From contig OZ244048.1 in NCBI GenBank assembly GCA_965215265.1, positions 4,448,001 through 4,512,000 on the forward strand: 64,000 nt of DNA, read 5' to 3'. The DNA is from Candidatus Poribacteria bacterium (GTDB lineage: Bacteria > Poribacteria > WGA-4E > WGA-3G). Positions 2 to 39,583 of the stretch are shown in pieces; the stretch's first letter is position 1, and every line of letters starts with the position of its first letter. The notes beneath the pieces are model-generated. The model was not told the origin of the DNA. It did no database searches and was given only the letters and a program-made list of their open reading frames with translations. Both the position numbers and the translations under genes were made by a program.

Positions 2-1894
2 GAGCTGCGAGAGGACTTGTTCTGCTGTTTGGGTTTTGAGTCCTGCGCTAATCACTTCATCTTCGCTAATGTCATCAATAAGTTGTTCGGTTTGGCGTGT
101 AGCGGTTTTCGTCTGCTTAGGTTGATGCTCGAGGGGTTGTGAATCGGTTTTCTCTGCGTCGCAGACACCGACAGCGTCAACGATAAAGAAGTGTGTTTTT
201 TGGGTAGCGTCGCCGGTGACGGCTTGCAAGTCGTCTGGGCTGATGGTTCGGGTGCCGCGGCCTTTCATCTGTTCGAAATAGCCGTTAGATCTCACTGCAC
301 GCATGAAGAGGAGGCACTCAAGCGGTTTGATGTCGGTGCCGGTGGCAATCATGTCGACACTGACAGCGACCCGGAATCGGGGGTCTGTTCGGAATTTGGC
401 GATGCGAGCTTCTGGTTTATCGCTCTGGTAGGTAATTTTTTGGCAGAAGTCGTTTCCTTTAGCGAATTCCTCCCGGACGATGTGGACGATATCCTCTGCG
501 TGTGAGTCGTCTTTAGCAAAGATAATGGTTTTAGGGACGACGGTTCTGTCGGGGAAAATATCTGTGAAAAGTTTGGCTTTGAAGGTTTGGATGACGGTGC
601 GGATCTGGTTAACGGAGACTACGTCTCGATCCAACTGCGTTTCGTGGTATTCGACATCTGCGTCGAGTTCTGCCCAGTTGATCTGTCGTGTTTCGCGATT
701 CCGTTTTTGGACGTAATGCCCGGCTTCAATATTGCTACCGGCTTGTGTGATTTTGGTTCGGATGCTATAGACATAATAGCCGACGTTCACATTGTCTGCG
801 ATGGCTTGTTGGTGGCGATATTCGGAGACGAGGTTCTGGTTGAAAAAAGCGAGTGTCTGTTTGTAGGGGGTTGCGGTGAGTCCGACAATGAAAGCGTCGA
901 AGTATTCCAAAACGCGTCTCCATTTGCCGTAGATGGAGCGGTGGCACTCATCGACAATGACGATGTCAAAGGTATCAATCGGGATGTGAGGATTGTAGTT
1001 AAGTAGGGATGGGGGTTCCGTCTCAGTATCGTTCTCAAAAGCGGATTTTTCCTCAGAGGTAGTGTCGTACTCGGTTTCGCTTTTCAGCATGGAGTAGAGG
1101 CGTTGAATGGTAGTAATGCAGACCTGGCTTGTCGAGTCAATGACGTTGCTGGTGAGATGTTGGACGTTGTATAGTTCAGTGAATTTGCGTCCATCGTCGG
1201 GTGCGGTATAGGCTTGGAATTCACGGAGGGTTTGCCTACCGAGGTTACTCCGGTCGACGAGGAAAAGAATTCGCTTTGCACGTGCGAATTGGATAAGCCG
1301 GTATGTTGCAGTGACGGCGGCATAAGTTTTGCCGCTGCCGGTGGCCATCTGTATTAAGGCGCGTGTGCGTGCTTCTGCGAGCGATTTTTCAAGATTTGTG
1401 ATTGCCTCAAGTTGACAGTTCCTGAGGTTTCCGTTTTCTAGGGGCGGGATGTCATTTTTGAGTCTGTACCGGAAGGTTGTCGGTTCGACGATTTCCCGGC
1501 GAAGCGCCTCGGGTGTATGGAACGTAAAGAGTGGGCGTGAGCGGGGTTCCGGGTCGCGTGTATCCCGGAAGCATGTTTCAACGCCGGTGGATTGATATTC
1601 AAAAGGACAGCCGGAAAATATGGGCAGTGCCTCTGGTAAATTGGCGCGGTACCGTTCTGATTGCTGAGAGGCACCACTAAGGGTTGTACCGGCTTTTTTG
1701 GCTTCAAGTAATCCGACTGCGATGCCGTCAACAAAAAGAAGGTAGTCGGCTTTTTCCGCACTGTTCAACCGGTATTCGCGGATGGCGACACCGAGCCCTT
1801 CAGCTGCGGCGCGTTCAGCATAATCATAAATGCGCCATCCGGTTGCTTCAAGCATCTGATCTATATTGCGTCTGGCTTGCTGTTCAGGAGTCAT
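2..1894 (-). CDS. hsdR: Type I restriction enzyme R subunit (HsdR family), running off the left edge
   Basis: Not in the ORF track because there is no stop in the window. Manual translation from ATG 1894: MTPEQQARRNIDQMLEATGW...ADYLLFVDGIAVGLLEAKK (PD-(D/E)xK nuclease), QMATGSGKT (Walker A), IVDECHRSIY (DEAH box), GLTATP, VDMIATGTDIKPLECL, YFEQMKGRGTR. Confidence 0.92.
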   Translation of the reverse strand, partial: MTPEQQARRNIDQMLEATGWRIYDYAERAAAEGLGVAIREYRLNSAEKADYLLFVDGIAVGLLEAKKAGTTLSGASQQSERYRANLPEALPIFSGCPFEYQSTGVETCFRDTRDPEPRSRPLFTFHTPEALRREIVEPTTFRYRLKNDIPPLENGNLRNCQLEAITNLEKSLAEARTRALIQMATGSGKTYAAVTATYRLIQFARAKRILFLVDRSNLGRQTLREFQAYTAPDDGRKFTELYNVQHLTSNVIDSTSQVCITTIQRLYSMLKSETEYDTTSEEKSAFENDTETEPPSLLNYNPHIPIDTFDIVIVDECHRSIYGKWRRVLEYFDAFIVGLTATPYKQTLAFFNQNLVSEYRHQQAIADNVNVGYYVYSIRTKITQAGSNIEAGHYVQKRNRETRQINWAELDADVEYHETQLDRDVVSVNQIRTVIQTFKAKLFTDIFPDRTVVPKTIIFAKDDSHAEDIVHIVREEFAKGNDFCQKITYQSDKPEARIAKFRTDPRFRVAVSVDMIATGTDIKPLECLLFMRAVRSNGYFEQMKGRGTRTISPDDLQAVTGDATQKTHFFIVDAVGVCDAEKTDSQPLEHQPKQTKTATRQTEQLIDDISEDEVISAGLKTQTAEQVLSQL

Positions 1895-6599: not shown

Positions 6600-7084
6600 T
6601 TCAAGCGAATTTGAAACGAGCAGACTTTCAAAGTTCATGATACCTCCATCGAAAACGGCAGGACCGTCGTCTCAACTTGTGCGAGATCTATTCACACCTG
6701 AGCCGAGCTTCCTTTTTTTCTCTCGAGCCGCAATAAGGTTTTTGCTCAGCCCCAACTCGGAATTGCCTCTATTACATATATATAATACCACGTACACACT
6801 TAAAATGGAAACTTTTTTTGCTCGCCTGAAATGGGTTTTTAGTAAGTGAAACAGGGCGTTTCACACTTCATTGGATAAAATCGCCGATGAAGGGTGGCAC
6901 CGCGGGGACTCCAAATAGAACGGACATTCTCCTTTATCCGTTCGAAAGTTGGATATACCGGATAGAGAAACAATACAGCCCAGGTTCATAGGGGATTATC
7001 TGAAAGAAAATATAATTGTCTTTTTTTTCTCAGTGTGGTAACCTGAAACAACGGTGTATCGAGATTGGGAGTTCGATTCTAGAG

Positions 7085-8845
7085 ATGAGACTTGATAAAA
7101 ACCAGACAAAAGCGGTTAATCACGTTACCGGTCCTGCGATTGTGGTAGCGGGGCCGGGAAGTGGGAAAACAACGGTCATCGCCGAGCGGATTCTGAACCT
7201 CATCCGTGTCCATAACGTACCGCCGGAGAAGATTCTTGCAATTGCTTTTAATAGAAAAGCAGTTGAAGAGATGGAGAGCCGTATCTTGGCGGGATTAGGT
7301 AAGAACAGCTGTGCTCATGGTGCCTTGTTACCTGAAATCCGGACGCTTCATGCGTTCGGGAAGGATATTATCATCGAGAACTATCGGTACGCCGGATTTG
7401 CGCAGGAGCCGCAGATCTGGTCTGGACACCTTGGGCGAATGATCGTGACGGAGCGGAATCGACTTGAGCAGGAAGCCTCCACGACCACGGTTGCTATCTA
7501 TAAAATTGAGAGTAAGACGACCGGTAGGTGTTACATTGGTCAGAGCGTAGCTCCGGAGCGACGGGAGCGGGAGCATTTCAGCTATTCGTCAAATGATAGG
7601 CTCCGTCAGGCAATCCGGGCTGAAGGCGTGTCCGGATTCAGTTTTGAGGTGCTTGAATGGGTGCTTGGGGCAGATGCGAACCGTCGCGAGGCGTATTGGA
7701 TTGGGGTTTACAAGAACCAGTGCAGTGTCTTTAACCGTGCAGATCCGTTGCGAGAACGGTTTAGTAGTCAGGTGATGCTTGAGATGTTCTGTCAGCATTT
7801 CGGCATTCCTTATGAAGTGCATCTCGACCGGCACCCTGATTTCGAGAATTTGTTTGAACGGTTTGATGCCATCCAATCGGAAGTGATGCGAGCGAAACGG
7901 CAAGTTAAAACGGGGTTGTTCGACCCGAAGACGCTTGAGAACCGGGTTGTACAGGCGTTTGCAGAGAAATACGAGGCGGCGAAAACGGAGGCAAACGCTA
8001 TTGATTTCGAGGATATGCTTATCCATTCCGCGAATCTATTTGAACGGTGCCCGGACATCTGTCAAACCTACTGTGAAAGATATCCATATCTGCTTGTTGA
8101 TGAGTTTCAAGATATTTCGCCTGCAGATTTTCGGCTGATTTCCCGCTTATCAGAAAATCTTTTTGCTGTGGGGGACGATGACCAAGCGATTTACGGTTTT
8201 CGCGGCGGCAATTCGCAAATTATGCTTGAATTTGCCAGCCGTCGGGATGTTTCAAAATATGAGATTACGCGCAATTATCGTTCTACCTCGACACTTGTTG
8301 AGCATGCGAGGACCCTAATTGAACGTAACTTACCACGTATTAAGAAGGATCTCCGGGCGCATAACCCGGTTCGAGGTTGTATAAGCATTGTGGAGGCAAC
8401 GCCTGAAAGGTTAGAAGAGTTGTTATTGGTAGAATTAGCAACCCGCCAAGAGACAGCCGTCCTCGCCCGCACGAACTACGAAGTTGACGTGCTCGAAAAG
8501 ATGTTGAGCGGTAGACATGCTGAACACCGCCTATCGGAAATAACGACTATTCACAAAGCAAAGGGCCGTGAGTATGAGAAGGTTATCCTCATTCACAACG
8601 CATTGGGGCGACACTTCCCGCGTGGAGATAGCGATAGGACAGAGGAACGGCGCGTGCTCTATGTTGCAATGACGCGGGCGAAGTTGGAATTGGTTGTTTT
8701 GGGTGGGGATTGTCCTTTCATTCCGGAGTTTGAAAAGGTGCGTAAAAATTTAGGGTATTATTCGCGGCAGTTTGGGTATTGGTATGCGAGGCGGAAGTTG
8801 AATCAAAAAGAACTTGATTCTGCTAATAAAATGTCGGGGCATTAA
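7085..8845 (+). CDS. UvrD/Rep-family SF1 helicase with an inserted GIY-YIG nuclease domain and no 2B subdomain
   Basis: AGPGSGKT, AIAFNRKA, TLHAF, LVDEFQD, VGDDDQAIYGFRG, NYRS, AVLARTN, TIHKAKGREY, EERRVLYVAMTRAK; insert AIYKIESKTTGRCYIGQS...R..EH...E..WI. Start may be 7016. Confidence 0.9.
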   Translation: MRLDKNQTKAVNHVTGPAIVVAGPGSGKTTVIAERILNLIRVHNVPPEKILAIAFNRKAVEEMESRILAGLGKNSCAHGALLPEIRTLHAFGKDIIIENYRYAGFAQEPQIWSGHLGRMIVTERNRLEQEASTTTVAIYKIESKTTGRCYIGQSVAPERREREHFSYSSNDRLRQAIRAEGVSGFSFEVLEWVLGADANRREAYWIGVYKNQCSVFNRADPLRERFSSQVMLEMFCQHFGIPYEVHLDRHPDFENLFERFDAIQSEVMRAKRQVKTGLFDPKTLENRVVQAFAEKYEAAKTEANAIDFEDMLIHSANLFERCPDICQTYCERYPYLLVDEFQDISPADFRLISRLSENLFAVGDDDQAIYGFRGGNSQIMLEFASRRDVSKYEITRNYRSTSTLVEHARTLIERNLPRIKKDLRAHNPVRGCISIVEATPERLEELLLVELATRQETAVLARTNYEVDVLEKMLSGRHAEHRLSEITTIHKAKGREYEKVILIHNALGRHFPRGDSDRTEERRVLYVAMTRAKLELVVLGGDCPFIPEFEKVRKNLGYYSRQFGYWYARRKLNQKELDSANKMSGH

Positions 8846-8979: not shown

Positions 8980-9231
8980 TCAGATCCGCCTCTCGTATTC
9001 ATCGTGTGTTCCAATCCAGAACCAGATGAAATTCCCGTCTTCTTCACGGGCTAACGCTCTGTAACCTCCACTCACCCGTATTGCCCAAAGGTTTCCGACC
9101 TTTTTTAAATGAATTGAAGGGTGTCTGGGATTTTGCCGAAGGCGTTGAAACTTCTGCGGGACGCGGCTTCGGACATTGAACGGAAGTTTCGCGTAAGATT
9201 CCCAAAAATCGTCATCGAGAATATGGTTCAT
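8980..9231 (-). CDS. RelE/ParE-superfamily toxin
   Basis: 83 aa, basic; FWESYAKLP...NPRHPSIHLKKVGNLWAIRVSGGYRALA...WFWIGTHDEYER. Confidence 0.88.
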   Translation of the reverse strand: MNHILDDDFWESYAKLPFNVRSRVPQKFQRLRQNPRHPSIHLKKVGNLWAIRVSGGYRALAREEDGNFIWFWIGTHDEYERRI

Positions 9232-9556
9232 GCTCTAACAGTTTCTGGAGTTCCTCTATGCTACGGCATTTGCCTTCTCGATAATTCTTCACCGCTTTTT
9301 CAGCAAGGGCATCCAGCCGTCCGGCTTTCACATCTTTTTCAAACTGCTGCTCCCATGCTTCTTCTTCTGCGACTAAGGTGTCATGAAGTTTATTTTCAAG
9401 GGTCTTCAGCAGTGCTTTTTCTGTAGGTGCCTCGCATTTAACTTCTGGAACATCTGGAATCCTCCCAAGCCAACTCGTGCTGTTTCTCTGAATGTGAGCG
9501 ATGTAGCTCTCTTCAAAGCCGTTATCATGAATCTCAACCTTCTTTATTTTTTCCAT
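9212..9556 (-). CDS. antitoxin: HicB-like N-terminal domain plus acidic C-terminal helix
   Basis: YIAHIQ...WLGRIPDVPEVKCEAPTEKALLKTL (HicB-like) then EAWEQQFEKDVKAGRLDALAEKA; overlaps the toxin gene. Confidence 0.75.
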   Translation of the reverse strand: MEKIKKVEIHDNGFEESYIAHIQRNSTSWLGRIPDVPEVKCEAPTEKALLKTLENKLHDTLVAEEEAWEQQFEKDVKAGRLDALAEKAVKNYREGKCRSIEELQKLLEHEPYSR

Positions 9557-10010
9557 TGTCTTCTCCTACGGATGAAGTTAGGTAGAGTTTTTCGGTGTCT
9601 GTCTGCAAATCGTGTTCCCAAGTTTTGGCGTTACGAAAAACAGATGGTTCTTCTGCCCACGAGGCGGTCAACAACCACTTAGGGATAAAAGCGACATCAA
9701 CACGTTTTTTAGAGTTCTGTAAATACCAACTTTCTAAACTTTGATGGATGTGTGGTGCAAATTCCCGATTACTGCGGTATGCCCGGAGCTCGCGAATAAG
9801 CGTTCTGCGGACTTGCTTTTGCTGCCTCTTGAAACGCCAGCGAGCGGCGTTACTCCGAAGATACTGTAGGAGATACCGGCGTTCTAAATTATAGCGATGA
9901 TTCCAAGAACGTCGTAACTCCTGAACAAGCAGGTCTTCAAGGGTAACCTTTTCAGGTATCCACTCGCCATTTTCAATACAGTTGAATTCGTAAAGGAATT
10001 GGTTCTTCAT
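9534..10010 (-). CDS. hypothetical Arg/Trp-rich helical protein, first gene of the TA operon
   Basis: 158-aa ORF overlapping the antitoxin start; no recognisable motif. Confidence 0.55.
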   Translation of the reverse strand: MKNQFLYEFNCIENGEWIPEKVTLEDLLVQELRRSWNHRYNLERRYLLQYLRSNAARWRFKRQQKQVRRTLIRELRAYRSNREFAPHIHQSLESWYLQNSKKRVDVAFIPKWLLTASWAEEPSVFRNAKTWEHDLQTDTEKLYLTSSVGEDNGKNKEG

Positions 10011-10114
10011 GTATTAGCTTTGCGGCAACCGGCTTACTTCTATCTCTGTCTGGATAGAGGCACCGGGGACAGAGAACGGCAGTATTAGGAACTCTTTGAA
10101 GGAAGCGTCCCAGA

Positions 10115-10208
10115 GCTTCTGTCTGCTTCTCGTTTTTTGAGCATTCCCGAAAGCATGGGCAATTGAGCAGGGGGCTCCATGCTTCCGTCTGCTTCTCGTT
10201 TTTTGAGC
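10115..10208. repeat. repeat-spacer-repeat unit (28 + 38 + 28 nt); spacer matches 36105-36140
   Basis: GCTTC(T/C)GTCTGCTTCTCGTTTTTTGAGC at 10115-10142 and 10181-10208 (1 mismatch); 10145-10180 equals 36105-36140 at 35/36 nt. Confidence 0.9.
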
Positions 10209-10267
10209 GTCCTCTAGCACTGTAGTTGGCTTTCTTAGATTCTTGCGTTCTTGATGCTTTCTTATAA

Positions 10268-10297
10268 ATTATACCAGCATCTCTATTATTTTGTCAA
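10268..10297 (-). promoter_or_regulatory. strong sigma70 promoter for the repeat-containing leader and TA operon
   Basis: Minus strand TTGACA-18 nt-TATAAT with extended -10 TGG. Confidence 0.75.
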
Positions 10298-10436
10298 CGG
10301 CTTTTTTCTCCCCCAAAACCGACTTCTGGGCCATGGCTCACTTTTCTGCATTGACTTTTTTTCTGTGGTGTAGTAAACTCCCTCTTAACTTTTAGCTGCA
10401 GTCCGCTGCGATGAGGAAGAAAATAACATCAACTTT

Positions 10437-11672
10437 ATGAAAAAGATGCCGCCTCTGAACGTCTCTACACGTGTGCAGTTCTATTTCCTAACGTTTGCGC
10501 ATACCGTTTTGGATTCTTATGCGACACTTTTATCCCACCTATTACCGTTACTGCTGACAAAGCTCGTCTCATCTGCGGCGCGTAACAGTTATGCAGGCAG
10601 ATTCATAGCGGTGTACAGCGTGTTCAGTTCGTTAGGGCAGCTCGTCTTCGGGTGGCTGTCAGACCGGGTGAAAACGGTACATTTCCTAACGTTAGGGGTT
10701 GCGTTCACTGCGATGGGGTTGAGTCTATTGGGGCTGGCGCGTTCTCAATTTGTTGTGTATCTGTTATTGAGTGTTGGTGGGCTGGGTGTGGCGGCTTTTC
10801 ATCCGCAAGCGACGACGTATGCCGGTGCGCTTTCGGCAAAGGGAAGAGGGTTGGGTACCTCCGTTTTTTTGACCGGTGGAAACGTTGGCCGGGCACTCGG
10901 GCCATTGGTGCTGATGCTCCTCCCGTATCGCTTCGGTCTGAAGCACCTTGTCTGGGAGATGATACCGGGAGTTCTGGTGGCGTTGTTAGTGCCCAAGGTT
11001 CTTCGCTTTCCGCGCGAATTGGACGTTACTGCCCGGGCGTTCGGTGCAGAACCGAGTTCTAAGTTGGGGCCGGAGCATCCGTTAGGCACGCGCATCCCGT
11101 TGCGTCGCGGTGTGCTTTTTCCGCTGACGGTGCTATTCGTTATCGCAGCGTTCCGGACGGTTACGTCCGTGGGGTTAGAAAGTTTTCTCTCGATTCATCT
11201 GGCAGATGAGGCATATTCAAACCAGGTGCGTTCTTTGGTTATCGCGCTCTTTATTTTTGCGGGTTCAGTGGGCATCATGATTGGGGGCTGGTTTTCGAGT
11301 CGGATTAATACATACATCCTATTGTTGTTCTCGCTCGTCGGTGCGCCGCCGCTTCTGTATGCGTCGCTTCACACGGATGGGGTGTCTTTCCTTATCTTTC
11401 TGTTTTTAGGCAATGTGGTTCTTTCAAGTTCGATCACGATTAACATTGTGCTTGCACAAATGCTGCTGCGTGGGCATGAAAACATCGCGTCAAGTCTGAT
11501 GATGGGTGCTGTGTGGGGTGTCGGTGGGTTATTGAATATACAAGTTGGGGCATTAGGGGACCGGTTTGGGCTGCCGATAGTGTTAGATGGGTTGGTGATG
11601 CTGCCGGTGGTGATGGCTCCGCTCCTGCTGCTGCTCCGTGCTCAGCCGGATTTGTCAAAGGTGCCGAAATAG
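10437..11672 (+). CDS. MFS transporter (Fsr-like)
   Basis: About 12 TM segments, FGWLSDR motif A, GVAAFHP, GGNVGRALGP. Confidence 0.92.
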   Translation: MKKMPPLNVSTRVQFYFLTFAHTVLDSYATLLSHLLPLLLTKLVSSAARNSYAGRFIAVYSVFSSLGQLVFGWLSDRVKTVHFLTLGVAFTAMGLSLLGLARSQFVVYLLLSVGGLGVAAFHPQATTYAGALSAKGRGLGTSVFLTGGNVGRALGPLVLMLLPYRFGLKHLVWEMIPGVLVALLVPKVLRFPRELDVTARAFGAEPSSKLGPEHPLGTRIPLRRGVLFPLTVLFVIAAFRTVTSVGLESFLSIHLADEAYSNQVRSLVIALFIFAGSVGIMIGGWFSSRINTYILLLFSLVGAPPLLYASLHTDGVSFLIFLFLGNVVLSSSITINIVLAQMLLRGHENIASSLMMGAVWGVGGLLNIQVGALGDRFGLPIVLDGLVMLPVVMAPLLLLLRAQPDLSKVPK

Positions 11673-16628: not shown

Positions 16629-18485
16629 TTATTGTGACAGGGCTGAAATATTCGACACTTGCGTATCACTGAGATCCAACTTTTTCAAGTTGGTGAGGCC
16701 TGACAGTGCCGAGACATCCGACACTTGCGTACCCCCGAGATCCAGCTCTTCCAAACTAGTGAGCTCTGACAGTGCCGAGATATCCGACACTTGCGTACCC
16801 CCGAGATCCAGCTCTTCCAAACTAGTGAGCTCTGACAGTGCCGAGATATCCGACACTTGCGTTCCCCCGAGATCCAGCTCTTCCAAACTAGTGAGCTCTG
16901 ACAGAGGCGAGATATCTTCTACCGCCGCACCCGCAAGATTCAGCGTTTCTAAGTTGGTTGCGGATTGAAGGAAAGTCAGATCGCTAACGTCTGAGCCACC
17001 TAAATCGAGGCTTGTCAAGCGGAGCATATCTGCCACGGTGACAGACCTCGTCGCGGAGATGTTGAGTGTCTCCTCTATTTTCGCACGGAGCGCCGGAGAT
17101 GGAATGTTCACCACCGTTTGAGGTATGTGTGTCCCGCTGTTTGTTACCCCAAAACCTACCACTCTCAAGTTGGTGAGGTGTGACAGTGCTGAGATATCCG
17201 ACACTGGCGTATTAGTGATATCCAGCGTTATCAAGTTGATGAGGCTTGCCAGTGCCGAGATATCCGACACTCGCGTATTATCGAGATACAGCCTTATCAA
17301 GTTGGTGAGGTTTGCCAGCGGCGAGATATCCGACACTGGCGTTCCCCTGAGATACAGCGTTATCAAGTTGATGAGGCTTGCCAGTGCCGAGATATCCGAC
17401 ACTTGCGTTCCCCCGAGATCCAGCCATGTCAATCTGGTGAGGTTTGCCAGCGGCGAGATATCCGACACTTGCGTACCCCTGAGATCCAGCCTTGTCAAGT
17501 TGGTGAGGTTTGCCAGCGGCGAGAAATCCGACACTTGCGTCCTCGGGAGCTCCAGCGATGTCAAGTTGGTGAGGTTTGCCAGCGGCGAGATATCCGACAC
17601 TTGCGTAACGCTGAGATCCAGCCTTGTCAAGTTGGTGAGGTTTGACAGTGCCGAGATATCCGACACTCGCGTACTCTGGAGATTCAGCGTTATCAAGTTG
17701 GTGAAAGTTGACAGCAGCGAGAAATCCAACACTCGCGTACCCCTGAGATTCAGATATTCTAAGTTGGTGAGGGTTGCCAGCGGCGAGATATCCGACACTT
17801 CCGTACTCTCGAGAATCAGCTCTACCAAGTTGGTGAGGTTTGACAGTGCCGAGATATCCGACACTCGCGTACTAAGGAGATCCAGCCCTGTCAAGTTGGT
17901 GAGGTTTGCCAGCGGCAAGATATCCGACACTTGCGTACCCCTGAGAATCAGCGTTTCCAAGTTGGTGAGGTTTGACAGTGCCGAGATATCCGACACTTCC
18001 GTACTCTCGAGCTCCAGCTCTACCAAGTTGGTGAGGTTTGACAGTGCCGAGATATCCGACACTTGCGTAACCCCGAGCTCCAGCGTTGTCAAGTTGGTGA
18101 GGTTTGACAGTGCCGAGATATCCGACACTTGCGTTCCCCCGAGATACAGCGTTGTCAAGTTGGTTGCGGATTCAAGTCCTGTCAGATTGCTAACGTTTGA
18201 TTCCCTTAGATCGAGGACTGTCAAGCGGAGCATATCTGCCTGGGTGACAGCCGTCCCAGCGGCGATGCCGAGTGTCTCCTTGATTTCCGCAAGGAGCGCC
18301 GCATCCGGAATGTTCACTACTGGACTTTGGCTTACTGCCAGGGGGGCAATGAGTAACGAAAGCGTGATGCAAAATAGAATGGAACAGGTTAAGGGGTGTT
18401 TGTAAACGGCATAACAAGCGCAGCGATGAATAATAGAACTAAAACACTTAACATGTATAGGGGGGGGGTGAATTCTTCTCTTCAT
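16629..18485 (-). CDS. secreted internalin-like leucine-rich repeat protein (two cap + LRR modules, about 22 repeats of 22 aa)
   Basis: Signal-like hydrophobic stretch, cap VVNIPD/SxALxAxI twice, repeats LTNLxxLxLxxTxVSDISxL; 66-bp periodicity in the DNA. Confidence 0.95.
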   Translation of the reverse strand: MKRRIHPPPIHVKCFSSIIHRCACYAVYKHPLTCSILFCITLSLLIAPLAVSQSPVVNIPDAALLAEIKETLGIAAGTAVTQADMLRLTVLDLRESNVSNLTGLESATNLTTLYLGGTQVSDISALSNLTNLTTLELGVTQVSDISALSNLTNLVELELESTEVSDISALSNLTNLETLILRGTQVSDILPLANLTNLTGLDLLSTRVSDISALSNLTNLVELILESTEVSDISPLATLTNLEYLNLRGTRVLDFSLLSTFTNLITLNLQSTRVSDISALSNLTNLTRLDLSVTQVSDISPLANLTNLTSLELPRTQVSDFSPLANLTNLTRLDLRGTQVSDISPLANLTRLTWLDLGGTQVSDISALASLINLITLYLRGTPVSDISPLANLTNLIRLYLDNTRVSDISALASLINLITLDITNTPVSDISALSHLTNLRVVGFGVTNSGTHIPQTVVNIPSPALRAKIEETLNISATRSVTVADMLRLTSLDLGGSDVSDLTFLQSATNLETLNLAGAAVEDISPLSELTSLEELDLGGTQVSDISALSELTSLEELDLGGTQVSDISALSELTSLEELDLGGTQVSDVSALSGLTNLKKLDLSDTQVSNISALSQ

Positions 18486-35593: not shown

Positions 35594-38500
35594 ATGCTCC
35601 TTGGCGTGACACGTGGCTTATACCTTTACAATAATTACAATAACGTGAAAAAAACGCATGTGAATCTTTATCTGCTTTTGCTTTTATCCGCTGCCCTCTC
35701 CATTCTTGGGCAAAACCTACGAGCAGAACAAGTTGTCCAGAGTCCATCCGACACAACACTGTATCAGACCTCCCATGAATTAATTGTGCGGATCCGTGCA
35801 GATACAGACGAGGCGAAGCTACGCACCGTGAGTGCACAACTGGGGGCATCTGCTATCCATCCTGTTTTTTCGCCCCATACCCCTGCCGGTGTACACCCTC
35901 GCCTTCGACGTAATTATCTCATACAGTTTTCCAAACGTTCCATCATACAAAGTACACGCGAACTGCGCAAAAAATACGAAAACTACCAATGGGTGGAAGC
36001 CGTTCAGATGAACTCGCTAAACCAGTTTTTTGCAGAAACAGAATCTAAGGTTACGCCTACAGACCCGGATTACGCAAAGCAGTGGAACCTGAGAATGCTG
36101 AATCTCCCGAAAGCATGGGCAATTGAGCAGGGCGCTCCATCCGTCATCATTGCTGTTGTCGATAGTGGACTTGACATGCAGCATCCTGATCTTCGTTCCC
36201 AACTCTGGCAAAATCGGGGTGAAATACCGGACAACGGTATTGACGATGATGAAAACGGGTACGTTGACGATGTTAAGGGGTGGGATTTTAGCGATGCACC
36301 TACAATGCAAGGGCGCGGCGATTGGACAGAGCGCGACAATCGCCCCGATGACGAAACTGGGCACGGCACCCATGTCGCCGGCATCATCGCTGCCGAACCT
36401 AACAACGGCATTGGTATCGCCGGAGTCGCATGGAACTGCCGACTCATGACTCTCAGAGCAGGCTTTGTTGCAGGTGCTGGGGCGTTTTTACAGAGCGACG
36501 ATGTCGCTGCTGCGATCGTTTATGCCGCTGATAACGGCGCGCAAATCATCAATATGAGCTGGGGCGACCCGGTCAACGTCTTCATTGTGCAAGATGCCGT
36601 TGAATACGCTTATCAGCGCGGGTGTATATTGGTGGCAGCTGCCGGCAACAGCGGTGAAGCTAGCTCTTATTATCCTGCCGCACTGAAATCTGTTATCTCC
36701 GTTGCTGCCCTACAACAAAACGGTCAGCTATGGGGAAATTCTCACTTTGGTGCGACAGTCGATATTGCCGCCCCAGGCGATGAAATTTTCAGTACGGTGC
36801 CCGGTGGAAATTACCGGACCAGATCCGGCACCTCAATGGCTGCGCCGCACGTAGCTGGTGTAACGGCCCTAATACTTTCGACGAATTCGACCTGCCCGAA
36901 CAAGGAAATTCTTCAGTTACTCACTGCAGGTTCACTATATCCACTTGATAGCCTTGGCGGCACCGGTCTACTTGATGCCCATATTGTTCTCATCTCTTCA
37001 ACTGGACTCATCGCGCAACTTGATGTGAAACAAGGGGTTGCAATGCAGAATAACGGTGCAGAAACGCCACGCTCAGTCAATAAAATAGAAATCTTTGGCA
37101 GTGCCGGCGGCACTCGATTTGTCGAATACCACCTCGAGTTCGGAAAGGGCGAAACGCCCGACTTCTGGTATCCTCTCGGAACGTCACATAAGCAGCCGAG
37201 GTTTAATGCCCTCCTCTACGAGTGGGACGTTTCTTATTTGGCAGAAGGCAAGTACACCCTACGTCTCCGCGTTCAACCCGAAACGGGAATTACCGTCACT
37301 GACAAAGCAGTTGTTGAAGTCAGTCGTACTCCACCGGCTATTTCCAAACATGAATCAGAAGGATGGTTTGTGCAGCATCGGATTGAGAATGTTATTATCT
37401 GGCAAACAGATGTGTTGACTATCGGAGCAATAGAGATTGGAGCTGTTGATGTTCTTTCCGTGCTGCAACGCAATGATCTGAACACACGAATAGTACGCTC
37501 AGATTCAGTGAATACACGACACCTGATAGACGTATCCGATTTAGGGTTACCCCCAGGCGAATACTTGTACCGTCTTATCGCACAAAATCGTGCCGGAATT
37601 CAGACATTTGATGACAATAACGGAGAGCTCTATCAAATCACCATGCGTGATGATTACATTCAGCAATCTTACTTGACTCAGGTGGCTTCTCTTAATCGCA
37701 GTTTGCACGCCATTAAGGGAGCAGACATGAATGCAAACGGCAAAATAGAACTCATCACAACGAAGATAGAGGCAGTTGGCTGGACACCTCCGCACGTTTT
37801 TGAGATGGATACTAACGGAGAATACCAGAAACTCTTTACGCTACTGGAACCGATGTACCCGTGGGAAACTGCCGATACAGATATGGATGGGCTCTTTGAA
37901 ATATTGGGTAACGCGTCTGCCGGAACGTTTTTGTTAGAGCAAGCCGAGCCGGGTAAATTTCCGACAGAACGCATCTGGAACGTACCTGAATTATGGGGCG
38001 GAAAAATCGCTGAATTAGATGGAGACGGGACACCCGAAATCTTTTCACGGCACACGCCTACCGAGGCTATCGCCGTCTATGAAGCTGCTGGAAATAATAG
38101 GTATCACAACACCGCGATGCTGAAAAATCCGACACGAGGCAGCAATATCATCGGAACAAATTTTGCCACCGGTGATTTTGATGGCGATGGACGTACGGAA
38201 ATTTTAGCAGGGGACACCGATGCAGATATCTTTGTATACGAAGCAGTTGGAGATAACCAGTACCGACAGAAATGGTACGGCACGCTCACCGAGGGCATAC
38301 CGCAACTCTTTGCTGCAGGAGATATGGATGGCGATGGACGTGATGAGTTCGCTGTTGGCGCAAAGACATGGACAGCCGATTCTGATCCGGCGCGCCACCA
38401 TTGGCGCATCACTCTCTTTAGTGCAGATACACCACAAAAAAACGGTCATTATCGCCCTGCATGGACCCAAAGAATTCGAAATGCCAACAGTGGAGGGAAC

Positions 38501-39583
38501 GGTATTACAATCGCTGACGCTGACAACGACGGTAGAAACGAATTATGTATCGCTGTCCCGCCCAATTTCTATCTCATTCAACACGATGGAACGGACTACG
38601 TCCCTATCTGGCATCATTCCGCCAGCAGCACTTTAAATCCAATCGTCGCAGACCTGGACAGCGACGGCATGAATGAACTCCTATTTAGTGAAAATCAACG
38701 CTTGTCTGTTTTCAATCGAGAGCCCGCACAGCAATCATTCTTGTCTGCACCTTGGGGTATTACTGCAAAGCCTATTGACGAAACCTCCGTTCGTATTGAA
38801 TGGCACGCATCGCCCAATGCACAAACGCATACTATCTACCGTGGATGCACGGCAGAATCGCTTGTTCTGCACGCCATAACCAAAGAAGAATTAACGAAAC
38901 ATTTTATAGATACGGGGCTCAAGACCGGCGAAACCTATTGGTACGCGCTTGCGTCACAAAACTCATATGGACACCCCTCGCCGAAATCTAAACCGGTACC
39001 TGTCATGCCAACCGCGCAGCCGAGGCTGACTTCGGCAAGGTACTCGCCACCCAACCAACTCGCATTACGATTTGATAAATCGATGGAAAGCAGAGCAGCG
39101 CACCCTGGGCGGTACCTGTTGCGAAAACTTGACCCTGCAGATGTTATCAACAGCACTTTTACGCCGCAATCCGCCATTCTTGATAAGTCACGACAGCGAG
39201 TTATCCTAACATTTCCTGCGAGTACCTTTCAGTTATCCAATCGCTACCGAATTGAAACGCTACAACTGAGCGACATACACGGGGCACCCATCGCAGAAGA
39301 TGCAAAGATGCTAACGCTAACCCTCGGTACACAGACACTCACAGACGCAATTGTCTATCCAAATCCAACCCGGTGCAACCAGATTACGTTTGATAAATTA
39401 CCTGAGGGAACCCGCATCGGCATCTACGATTTAGAGGGCAACCGGATCTCCGTGCTTACCACAAAAGCCATTGATCAGGGCAGAAAGGTTTGGCATCCAA
39501 TCAATATCAGCAGTGGCATTTATATCTATGTCCTTGAAACGGATGCGGCGCGGCGCGTGGGTAAACTTGCTATAATCCGCTGA
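35594..39583 (+). CDS. secreted S8 subtilase with FG-GAP repeats, FN3, Ig-like and T9SS-type C-terminal domain
   Basis: VVDSG, HGTHVAG, GTSMAAPHV triad; DFDGDG repeats; C-terminal VYPNP...IYDLEG...SSGIYIY...KLAIIR. True start uncertain. Confidence 0.93.
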   Translation: MLLGVTRGLYLYNNYNNVKKTHVNLYLLLLLSAALSILGQNLRAEQVVQSPSDTTLYQTSHELIVRIRADTDEAKLRTVSAQLGASAIHPVFSPHTPAGVHPRLRRNYLIQFSKRSIIQSTRELRKKYENYQWVEAVQMNSLNQFFAETESKVTPTDPDYAKQWNLRMLNLPKAWAIEQGAPSVIIAVVDSGLDMQHPDLRSQLWQNRGEIPDNGIDDDENGYVDDVKGWDFSDAPTMQGRGDWTERDNRPDDETGHGTHVAGIIAAEPNNGIGIAGVAWNCRLMTLRAGFVAGAGAFLQSDDVAAAIVYAADNGAQIINMSWGDPVNVFIVQDAVEYAYQRGCILVAAAGNSGEASSYYPAALKSVISVAALQQNGQLWGNSHFGATVDIAAPGDEIFSTVPGGNYRTRSGTSMAAPHVAGVTALILSTNSTCPNKEILQLLTAGSLYPLDSLGGTGLLDAHIVLISSTGLIAQLDVKQGVAMQNNGAETPRSVNKIEIFGSAGGTRFVEYHLEFGKGETPDFWYPLGTSHKQPRFNALLYEWDVSYLAEGKYTLRLRVQPETGITVTDKAVVEVSRTPPAISKHESEGWFVQHRIENVIIWQTDVLTIGAIEIGAVDVLSVLQRNDLNTRIVRSDSVNTRHLIDVSDLGLPPGEYLYRLIAQNRAGIQTFDDNNGELYQITMRDDYIQQSYLTQVASLNRSLHAIKGADMNANGKIELITTKIEAVGWTPPHVFEMDTNGEYQKLFTLLEPMYPWETADTDMDGLFEILGNASAGTFLLEQAEPGKFPTERIWNVPELWGGKIAELDGDGTPEIFSRHTPTEAIAVYEAAGNNRYHNTAMLKNPTRGSNIIGTNFATGDFDGDGRTEILAGDTDADIFVYEAVGDNQYRQKWYGTLTEGIPQLFAAGDMDGDGRDEFAVGAKTWTADSDPARHHWRITLFSADTPQKNGHYRPAWTQRIRNANSGGNGITIADADNDGRNELCIAVPPNFYLIQHDGTDYVPIWHHSASSTLNPIVADLDSDGMNELLFSENQRLSVFNREPAQQSFLSAPWGITAKPIDETSVRIEWHASPNAQTHTIYRGCTAESLVLHAITKEELTKHFIDTGLKTGETYWYALASQNSYGHPSPKSKPVPVMPTAQPRLTSARYSPPNQLALRFDKSMESRAAHPGRYLLRKLDPADVINSTFTPQSAILDKSRQRVILTFPASTFQLSNRYRIETLQLSDIHGAPIAEDAKMLTLTLGTQTLTDAIVYPNPTRCNQITFDKLPEGTRIGIYDLEGNRISVLTTKAIDQGRKVWHPINISSGIYIYVLETDAARRVGKLAIIR

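Follow-up and report, generated by a model that had tools for sequence, protein, structure and literature searches.

A solitary repeat-spacer-repeat unit in the genome of a Candidatus Poribacteria bacterium is a 66-nt insertion with a duplication of its target, and we consider it highly probable that the unit is a product of off-target (i.e., noncanonical) CRISPR spacer integration, a "neo-CRISPR" unit. It occupies positions 10115 to 10208 of the window, by which we mean the whole stretch of 64,000 nt that was analyzed (G000:C1:4448001-4512000 in a single-contig genome of 4.83 Mb); the unit thus lies at 4.458 Mb of the genome. Events of this kind have been described before; the novelty lies in their occurrence, about 23 times and in fixed form, in a natural genome that also offers clean empty sites.

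The unit and the gene copy that carries it

The features of the window to which the argument refers are as follows.

10115-10142, no strand: first copy of the duplicated target (neo-repeat), 28 nt, or 30 nt (to 10144) with 2 mismatches
10143-10180, no strand: inserted spacer, of which 10145-10180 (36 nt) is the copy of the subtilase gene
10181-10208, no strand: second copy of the duplicated target (to 10210 in the 30-nt reading)
36105-36140, plus strand: protospacer (source of the insert), in the 1,329-aa subtilase open reading frame (ORF) at 35594-39583
10021-10297, minus strand: diverged (80 to 84%) remnant of an 18-copy family gene, namely, its promoter and initial ~45 codons, with the 66-nt insert in frame
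10014-10220, minus strand: 68-aa open frame, the remnant N terminus of the family gene (tblastn; residues 26 to 67 match 18 paralogues)
10268-10297, minus strand: sigma-70-type consensus promoter (TTGACA, 18 nt, TATAAT, TG), conserved in the paralogues
8980-10010, minus strand: downstream ORFs of 158, 114, and 83 aa (family searches and genome comparison)

As the initial annotation of this DNA had described, two 28-nt direct repeats with one mismatch (27/28 identical) enclose 38 nt. The letters at 10143-10144 can be taken either as spacer or as the mutated end of a 30-nt duplication, in which case 10115-10144 and 10181-10210 agree at 28 of 30 positions; the total is 66 nt in both readings, i.e., 28 + 38 or 30 + 36. 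In the 30 + 36 reading, the 36-nt insert is exactly the stretch that matches the subtilase gene, and the match stops right at the repeat border. The 28-mer itself is found at just two positions in the 4.83-Mb genome when up to 3 mismatches are allowed. The same repeat search had been proposed for relatives, where a constant repeat with variable spacers might have been seen, and there it had nothing to work on: positions 9900-10440 gave one match only among 40 relatives, a subtilase-derived stretch of 31 nt in a same-genus genome (G001), and no orthologous locus.

The source of the spacer is equally clear. Positions 10145-10180 match 36105-36140 at 35 of 36 letters, and this is the sole other genomic copy (blastn of 9700-10700 against the whole genome, E 2e-9). 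The source lies in cis, 26 kb from the unit, and begins 511 nt into the coding sequence of the 1,329-aa ORF (plus strand), which carries Peptidase_S8, FG-GAP, and Por_Secre_tail domains; the match and the subtilase assignment made at first reading are thus both borne out, by blastn and by domain matches. The protospacer is flanked by gaatc and ccgtc, and CCA adjoins neither side on either strand.

Positions 10021-10141 and 10264-10297 are 80 to 84% identical to a gene family with 18 other full copies in the genome (blastn). In an alignment of all 19 sequences, the 28-mer has a single homologue in each of the 18 paralogues, and exactly 66 nt are missing from each of them opposite 10115-10180; therefore, the unit is an insertion with target duplication. 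What the window copy has gained is a second copy of the 28- to 30-mer plus a filler derived from the subtilase gene. At the single mismatch, it is the second repeat copy that retains the C found in most of the 18 paralogues. A captured host fragment had been one of the two options first offered for the unit, and the 66-nt insertion, the 18 empty paralogues, and the about 23 units of the same size described below all support it.

An insert between direct repeats, within sequence that belongs to a multicopy and possibly mobile gene family, also brings to mind the target-site duplication of a transposable element or the footprint left by its excision. We regard such an origin as extremely unlikely. 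The insert is 36 to 38 nt of an ordinary host gene in which no terminal inverted repeats were found, all of the units in the genome have different inserts, and the 28- to 30-nt duplication is far longer than any that we know transposases to make.

Nor is the unit an assembly chimera. The probability that we would assign to an assembly artefact is close to nil, because the unit stands unchanged, with 0 differing letters and an invariant spacer, in the contigs of public runs from 4 studies. Single contigs span it in three independent runs (X1, 10038-10600; X6, 10072-10600; X7, 9987-10278), and two overlapping contigs cover it in a fourth (X5). Read mapping had been suggested as a safeguard, and on this evidence the suspicion can be laid to rest; what spoke for a chimera was the a priori possibility of one in a repeat-rich leader and a 13-nt indel at 10230 relative to the public contigs. 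A search of metagenome_contigs with the second repeat copy plus its right flank (50 nt) returned no match and thus no empty-site strain from that collection.

The indel at 10230 is an observation in its own right. The contigs of all four public runs have 13 extra nucleotides (ATCATCCATCCCG) behind 10230, and the homologue of ATCATCCATCCCG in the 18-copy family is the region of the start codon. The genome to which the window belongs is without ATCATCCATCCCG, and with it the ATG of the remnant ORF is absent too.

The alignment also revises how the surroundings of the unit are read. The roughly 250-nt leader of the initial annotation is in part a 5' coding remnant of a multicopy gene; in the paralogues, the region of the unit is the promoter and first codons of a 385-aa ORF, not a leader. 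The 68-aa frame continues through the insert, which adds 22 codons in frame, and ends at a stop codon 3 nt before the ATG of the 158-aa ORF. The promoter call at 10297-10268 (minus) was right, with a score of 12/12 and an extended TG. Downstream, the predicted operon stands as far as its three minus-strand ORFs and its toxin are concerned: the 83-aa product has a ParE_like match (E 5.8e-6) and a weak RelE-like match in PHROGs, which is the only match to phage gene families beside the unit. The 158-aa ORF is unique in the genome and matches no family. The 114-aa ORF has one paralogue and again no family match, and its name of "antitoxin" derives from position alone.

Members of the 18-copy family, e.g., L006 at 492-1649 (minus), are 385-aa genes with the same conserved consensus promoter. 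In Pfam, the 385-aa protein matches MgtE_N repeats only, in its C-terminal part; NCBIfam and PHROGs gave no match, and PADLOC gave one insignificant match. A D...ExK-like motif can be seen by eye in the N-terminal part, supported by no library, and an identity as a PD-(D/E)XK/Rpn-like nuclease was considered for the family and set aside as unconfirmed by Pfam, NCBIfam, PHROGs, and PADLOC. Copies of the family are adjoined by a hairpin terminator and by runs of the pentanucleotides TAGGT/TTAGG. Elsewhere in the window, 7016-8845 (plus) encodes a 609-aa UvrD/REP-type helicase with a GIY-YIG nuclease domain inserted at residues 161 to 234.

Resident CRISPR-Cas systems and arrays

The unit had been called Cas-less. 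This is true of the window and not of the genome, which has two cas1 loci and several arrays, with all cas1 genes far from the window. Locus 1 (genome 0.506-0.524 Mb) combines a type III-A csm set with a type I-B set made up of cas8b1, cas7, cas5b, cas3, cas4, cas1b (TIGR03641, 453 bits), and cas2 (54 bits), and the type I-B set adjoins array A1. Locus 2 (1.47-1.49 Mb) is of type I-D, with a cas4/cas1 fusion, cas2, cas6, and an array with a 37-nt repeat. The unit is remote from both: cas1b and array A1 are ~3.9 Mb away, and the type I-D locus is ~3.0 Mb away. Two arrays have repeats of 30 nt.

G000:C1:524241-535579: array A1, 170 repeats of 30 nt; spacers of 36 nt (62), 37 nt (39), 38 nt (33), and 35 nt (14)
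G000:C1:622351-624111: array A2, 27 repeats of 30 nt, in sequence unlike those of A1; spacers of 36 nt (10) and 37 nt (9)

The size of the unit, 66 nt, is the modal unit of A1 and A2 (30 + 36), with the 30-nt reading of the duplication taking 2 mismatches; the CRISPR-like dimensions noticed at the outset are therefore those of the genome's own 30-nt-repeat arrays. The leaders of A1 and A2 both terminate in ATAGC, the canonical repeats terminate in AAC, and the A2 repeat begins with GT. Because spacers A1_96 and A2_11 are nearly identical, the data suggest that one machinery supplies both arrays; spacer A1_11 overlaps the same hairpin-like target, which suggests that A1 and A2, with their different repeats, sampled the same element.

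The unit's own repeat is no relative of these. It agrees with the canonical repeats at 6 to 11 of 29 to 30 positions, no better than shuffled sequences do, and its ends are GC...GC, not GT/AC. With one spacer and no resident repeat family, it is not a canonical CRISPR array. An AGAGC near the unit resembles the leader end ATAGC when judged by eye, as an offset look-alike whose overlap with the duplication is 2 nt.

Comparison of A1 with 80 family genomes gave array-to-array matches only (the A1 repeat is common to 61 of the 80), and no protospacers of A1 spacers were found in these genomes. Against their own genome, the canonical spacers gave only partial matches of 17 to 32 nt, on hairpin-like sequences.

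Three further places in the genome carry array-like sequence. An array of 6 repeats (29 to 30 nt, spacing 65 to 67) at G000:C1:4319417-4319917 has a repeat unrelated to that of A1 and adjoins a copy of the A1 leader with 95% identity. The two meet behind ...ATAGC, just as leader and array do in A1, and the arrangement may represent a neo-array that arose next to a duplicated leader. A mini-array of 3 A1 repeats lies ~730 to 890 nt from the 6-repeat array, at 4318526-4318690. Apart from 4318526 and 4319417, a scan of the genome for more arrays with novel repeats (at least 3 copies) found none. At G000:C1:4751050-4751420, a degenerate cluster of A1-like repeats accompanies a 78% identical copy of the A1 leader.

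A genome-wide class of solitary units

If the unit is a misplaced spacer, does the genome hold others of its kind? The scan for solitary pairs kept repeats identical at 23 or more of 24 positions, with nonmatching flanks, no third copy, and a start-to-start spacing of 40 to 130 nt. Pairs with matching flanks or a third copy were removed because coding arrays share the 66-nt period; one such array, a tandem leucine-rich-repeat-like coding sequence with a period of 66 nt (22 codons), lies in the window at 17301-18164, and the genome has several. At spacings of 65, 66, 67, and 68 nt, the scan counted 2, 10, 10, and 3 pairs, or 25 in total. The 87 other spacings together held 50 pairs, i.e., ~0.57 each, with a maximum of 5 at spacing 61 (a REP-like family). 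The peak at 65 to 68 is thus expected to contain ~2 background pairs (0.57 x 4), and so any single unit within it could be a coincidence. At about 75 nt, where units the size of those in the type I-D array (37-nt repeat) would fall, the scan showed no peak.

After removal of one 47-nt repeat with a 19-nt multicopy "spacer" and of one double listing, 23 units remained, at separate sites. Every repeat is different, and so is every insert. When the borders were reread with the help of the self-matching spacers, all fit a duplication of 30 to 31 nt plus a spacer of 36 to 37 nt. An empty site can be seen for a second unit, at genome 4190756 in a tandem-domain gene: all 4 of the paralogous domain copies whose alignment spans the site are without exactly 66 nt (one more domain copy fell short of the site and was not counted).

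The spacers of these units are self-derived in 7 of the 23 cases, in that a genomic copy of 35 to 39 nt ends at the repeat borders; two of the 7 match multicopy elements. A further 15 have no genomic match, and one has partial matches of 17 to 22 nt only. Compared with the 259 canonical spacers, the spacers of the neo-units share chance words of 9 to 13 nt only. Four of them had no exact match in viral_contigs, and one had no match in metagenome_contigs. No foreign source came to light for any of the spacers so searched. As a control, the "spacers" of pairs at other spacings match elsewhere in 31 of 46 cases, mostly as parts of multicopy REP/MITE-like elements, so that the control is not a clean one.

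Two further properties link the class to CRISPR adaptation. The exact repeat core begins with GT or ends with AC in 14 of the 23 units, compared with 4 of the 50 pairs at other spacings. Of the 7 self-derived spacers, 3 have a protospacer with CCA immediately on its 5' side, and in a fourth the motif is 1 nt off; all 4 CCA-bearing ends face the repeat end that terminates in AC or TC. Type I-B systems use CCN-type protospacer-adjacent motifs (PAMs), and this polarity of CCA to repeat end is that expected of type I arrays. The reading of CCA as the system's PAM draws only on the solitary units and on these known type I-B motifs, because the canonical spacers gave no protospacer.

Only 3 of the 23 units lie in a spanning frame of at least 150 aa, compared with 80% of 300 random sites, and these 3 in-frame units, like the window unit, have a spacing of 66, a multiple of 3.

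The window unit is not typical of this class: its exact duplication measures 28 nt, no CCA adjoins the protospacer, the ends are GC...GC, and the repeat is unlike the canonical ones. It thus lacks the end and PAM features that most of its sister units bear. A PAM is not obligatory for integration.

The same properties bear on a more mundane account, namely, a one-off repair or template-switch scar, in which repair of a break or a stalled fork drew on 36 to 38 nt of the subtilase gene as filler and slippage produced the 28-nt duplication. The missing CCA, the missing GT/AC ends, and the 28 rather than 30 nt of exact duplication would fit such a scar, as would a source in cis only 26 kb away, the ~2 background pairs expected in the 65-68 bin, and the occurrence of a 5-nt CCGTC both just past the source stretch and within the second repeat copy, offset by 4 nt. 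Yet the shared CCGTC does not abut the junction, and a repair scar leaves unexplained both the 66-nt total, which is the modal unit of A1 and A2, and the ~22 other solitary units of the same size, in a class in which 15 of 23 spacers have no genomic copy that could have served as template. On balance, we find a repair scar unlikely, and off-target integration remains by far the better account.

Two features of the class concern where units sit. At G000:C1:3283204-3283470, two solitary units with different repeats adjoin each other directly, with repeat copy 2 of the first unit touching repeat copy 1 of the following one, which suggests that a local feature attracts integration there; in 80 family genomes, the units 3283204 and 3283304 matched through the self-derived spacer only. 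Several solitary units (e.g., G000:C1:555344, 1680509, 2322503, 4311496, and 4332991) lie inside REP/MITE-like elements with inverted repeats of the CGAGATTTGTA type. In these CGAGATTTGTA-type elements, related positions of different copies were independently targeted, and the same family makes up the minor peak at spacing 61.

Origin, precedents, and possible function of the unit

Based on the observations outlined so far, we infer that Cas1-Cas2 was the agent of the insertion, and we propose the following sequence of events. The type I-B adaptation complex (Cas1b-Cas2, with Cas4), whose genes are all present in this genome, would have taken up a 36-nt fragment of the subtilase gene. Two staggered strand-transfer attacks, ~30 bp apart, would then have struck outside the CRISPR arrays, in the 5' end of a family gene copy undergoing decay, and gap repair would have duplicated the 28 to 30 bp between the attacks, yielding the repeat-spacer-repeat arrangement.

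Off-target integration has precedents. Nivala, Shipman, and Church (2018, Nat Microbiol 3:310) are said to have described off-target integration and neo-CRISPR loci made by E. coli Cas1-Cas2. Off-target integration with a duplication of repeat length is reported for the E. coli proteins (bioRxiv 10.1101/148544, PMC7054753, PMC6698737), and evidence in nature is called "circumstantial" only, from two other species (bioRxiv 10.1101/148544). The unit resembles neo-CRISPR loci in its spacer-sized insert, its repeat-length duplication, its nonarray site, and the presence of an adaptation module in the genome. The experiments differ from our case in that they used over-produced E. coli type I-E Cas1-Cas2, or were done in vitro, whereas here the events are fixed, natural, about 23 in number, and of type I-B. 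For P. furiosus Cas1-Cas2 in vitro, off-target sites that share end features with true repeats are reported (PMC6698737), and the sites of the present class do the same.

Isolated or orphan mini-arrays are a second point of comparison: they, too, are repeat-spacer-repeat sequences away from cas genes, with cas genes elsewhere in the genome. In such arrays the repeat is usually that of a system still resident or since lost, whereas here the repeat of each unit is its own and unrelated. A study by Shmakov et al. (2020, CRISPR J) reportedly underlies one proposal for their origin. In a preprint, that proposed origin is given as "off-target spacer acquisition events" (bioRxiv 10.64898/2026.04.27.721218).

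Could the unit nevertheless be functional? One view holds that it is a small-RNA cassette, i.e., a crRNA-like or antisense RNA directed at the subtilase mRNA, either of the CreTA/crlRNA kind or serving the type III-A Csm complex, and possibly linked to the toxin-antitoxin genes. This view is compatible with an origin in off-target integration. Several points could be cited in its favor: the 12/12 promoter would transcribe the unit in the antisense direction, the transcript would be complementary to the subtilase mRNA at 35/36 positions, contigs of 4 studies show the unit without change, the genome has a PAM-independent type III-A csm locus, and, read on the minus strand, the upstream repeat ends in 8 nt that agree with the end of the A1 repeat at 5 of 8 positions. 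The repeats as a whole are nonetheless unlike the resident ones, within the range of shuffles, and the promoter and flanks are those of an 18-copy family that is without the unit. The unit is megabases from the cas1b locus and A1 and from the type I-D cas locus, the target lies 511 nt inside the coding sequence and not at a promoter or ribosome-binding site, and a search of Rfam with 9900-10400 (both strands, E<=1) gave no match. A type III guide that worked against one of the host's own mRNAs would presumably harm the cell, and the 22 sister units with unrelated spacers point to a by-product. We give a dedicated cassette very little credence.

The known systems invoked for such a role fit poorly. 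CreTA and crlRNA mini-arrays (bioRxiv 10.1101/2023.03.03.530964, 10.1101/2024.10.29.618823) share with the unit a single spacer between repeat-like sequences, a toxin gene nearby, and a host gene as apparent target; their resident-like repeats, location in or beside cas loci, and partial match to a promoter have no counterpart in the window unit. Virus-borne mini-CRISPR arrays (Medvedeva 2019 and Faure 2019, as summarized in PMC8616872) likewise have one spacer between two repeats, and there the repeats are identical or nearly so to those of the host and lie in viruses or proviruses, whereas the repeat of the window unit is unrelated to host repeats. A canonical array, a CreTA/crlRNA mini-array, and an RNA anti-CRISPR were each considered and rejected, the repeats of the unit being not resident-like. 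The reading as a minimal guide, CreTA-like, or anti-CRISPR RNA, raised in the initial annotation, thus finds no support: the repeat is unlike resident repeats, the cas loci are far away, Rfam is silent, and the spacer does not vary among the contigs of the 4 studies.

We conclude that the unit, as a product of off-target integration, is probably an inert scar. Processing into crRNA is not expected, because its repeats are unrelated to the resident repeats. The unit is presumably transcribed as part of the mRNA that starts at the consensus promoter, which belongs to the gene family and not to the unit; the strand logic of the earlier prediction was right, in that a transcript from the 10297-10268 promoter would carry a 36-nt complement of the subtilase mRNA. 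That it would act on this mRNA by antisense, whether incidentally or through exaptation, seems very unlikely. It is similarly improbable that the scar now serves to tune the type IX secretion system (T9SS)-sorted subtilase, whether by acting in trans as an antisense RNA or by guiding the PAM-independent type III-A complex in the manner of a crRNA. Were this true, the exapted scar would be a case of off-target CRISPR integration turned to the regulation of a host gene and coupled to a toxin-antitoxin operon.

For those who annotate genomes, the unit counsels caution: when a solitary repeat-spacer-repeat matches its own genome through the spacer, it is not necessarily a regulatory RNA or an anti-CRISPR. 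More broadly, the origin of new CRISPR arrays and the natural misfire rate of the spacer integrase are poorly documented, and the experimental case of misfiring used over-produced E. coli proteins. In the present genome, one type I-B module appears to have left about 23 fixed misfires, and for several of these the empty site serves as a clean control. As such, the genome is a natural data set on the rules for target sites (GT/AC ends), on the length of the ruler (30 to 31 bp), on the choice of spacers (self-derived or absent from the genome, with CCA), and on the sites at which integration is tolerated (noncoding or in frame).
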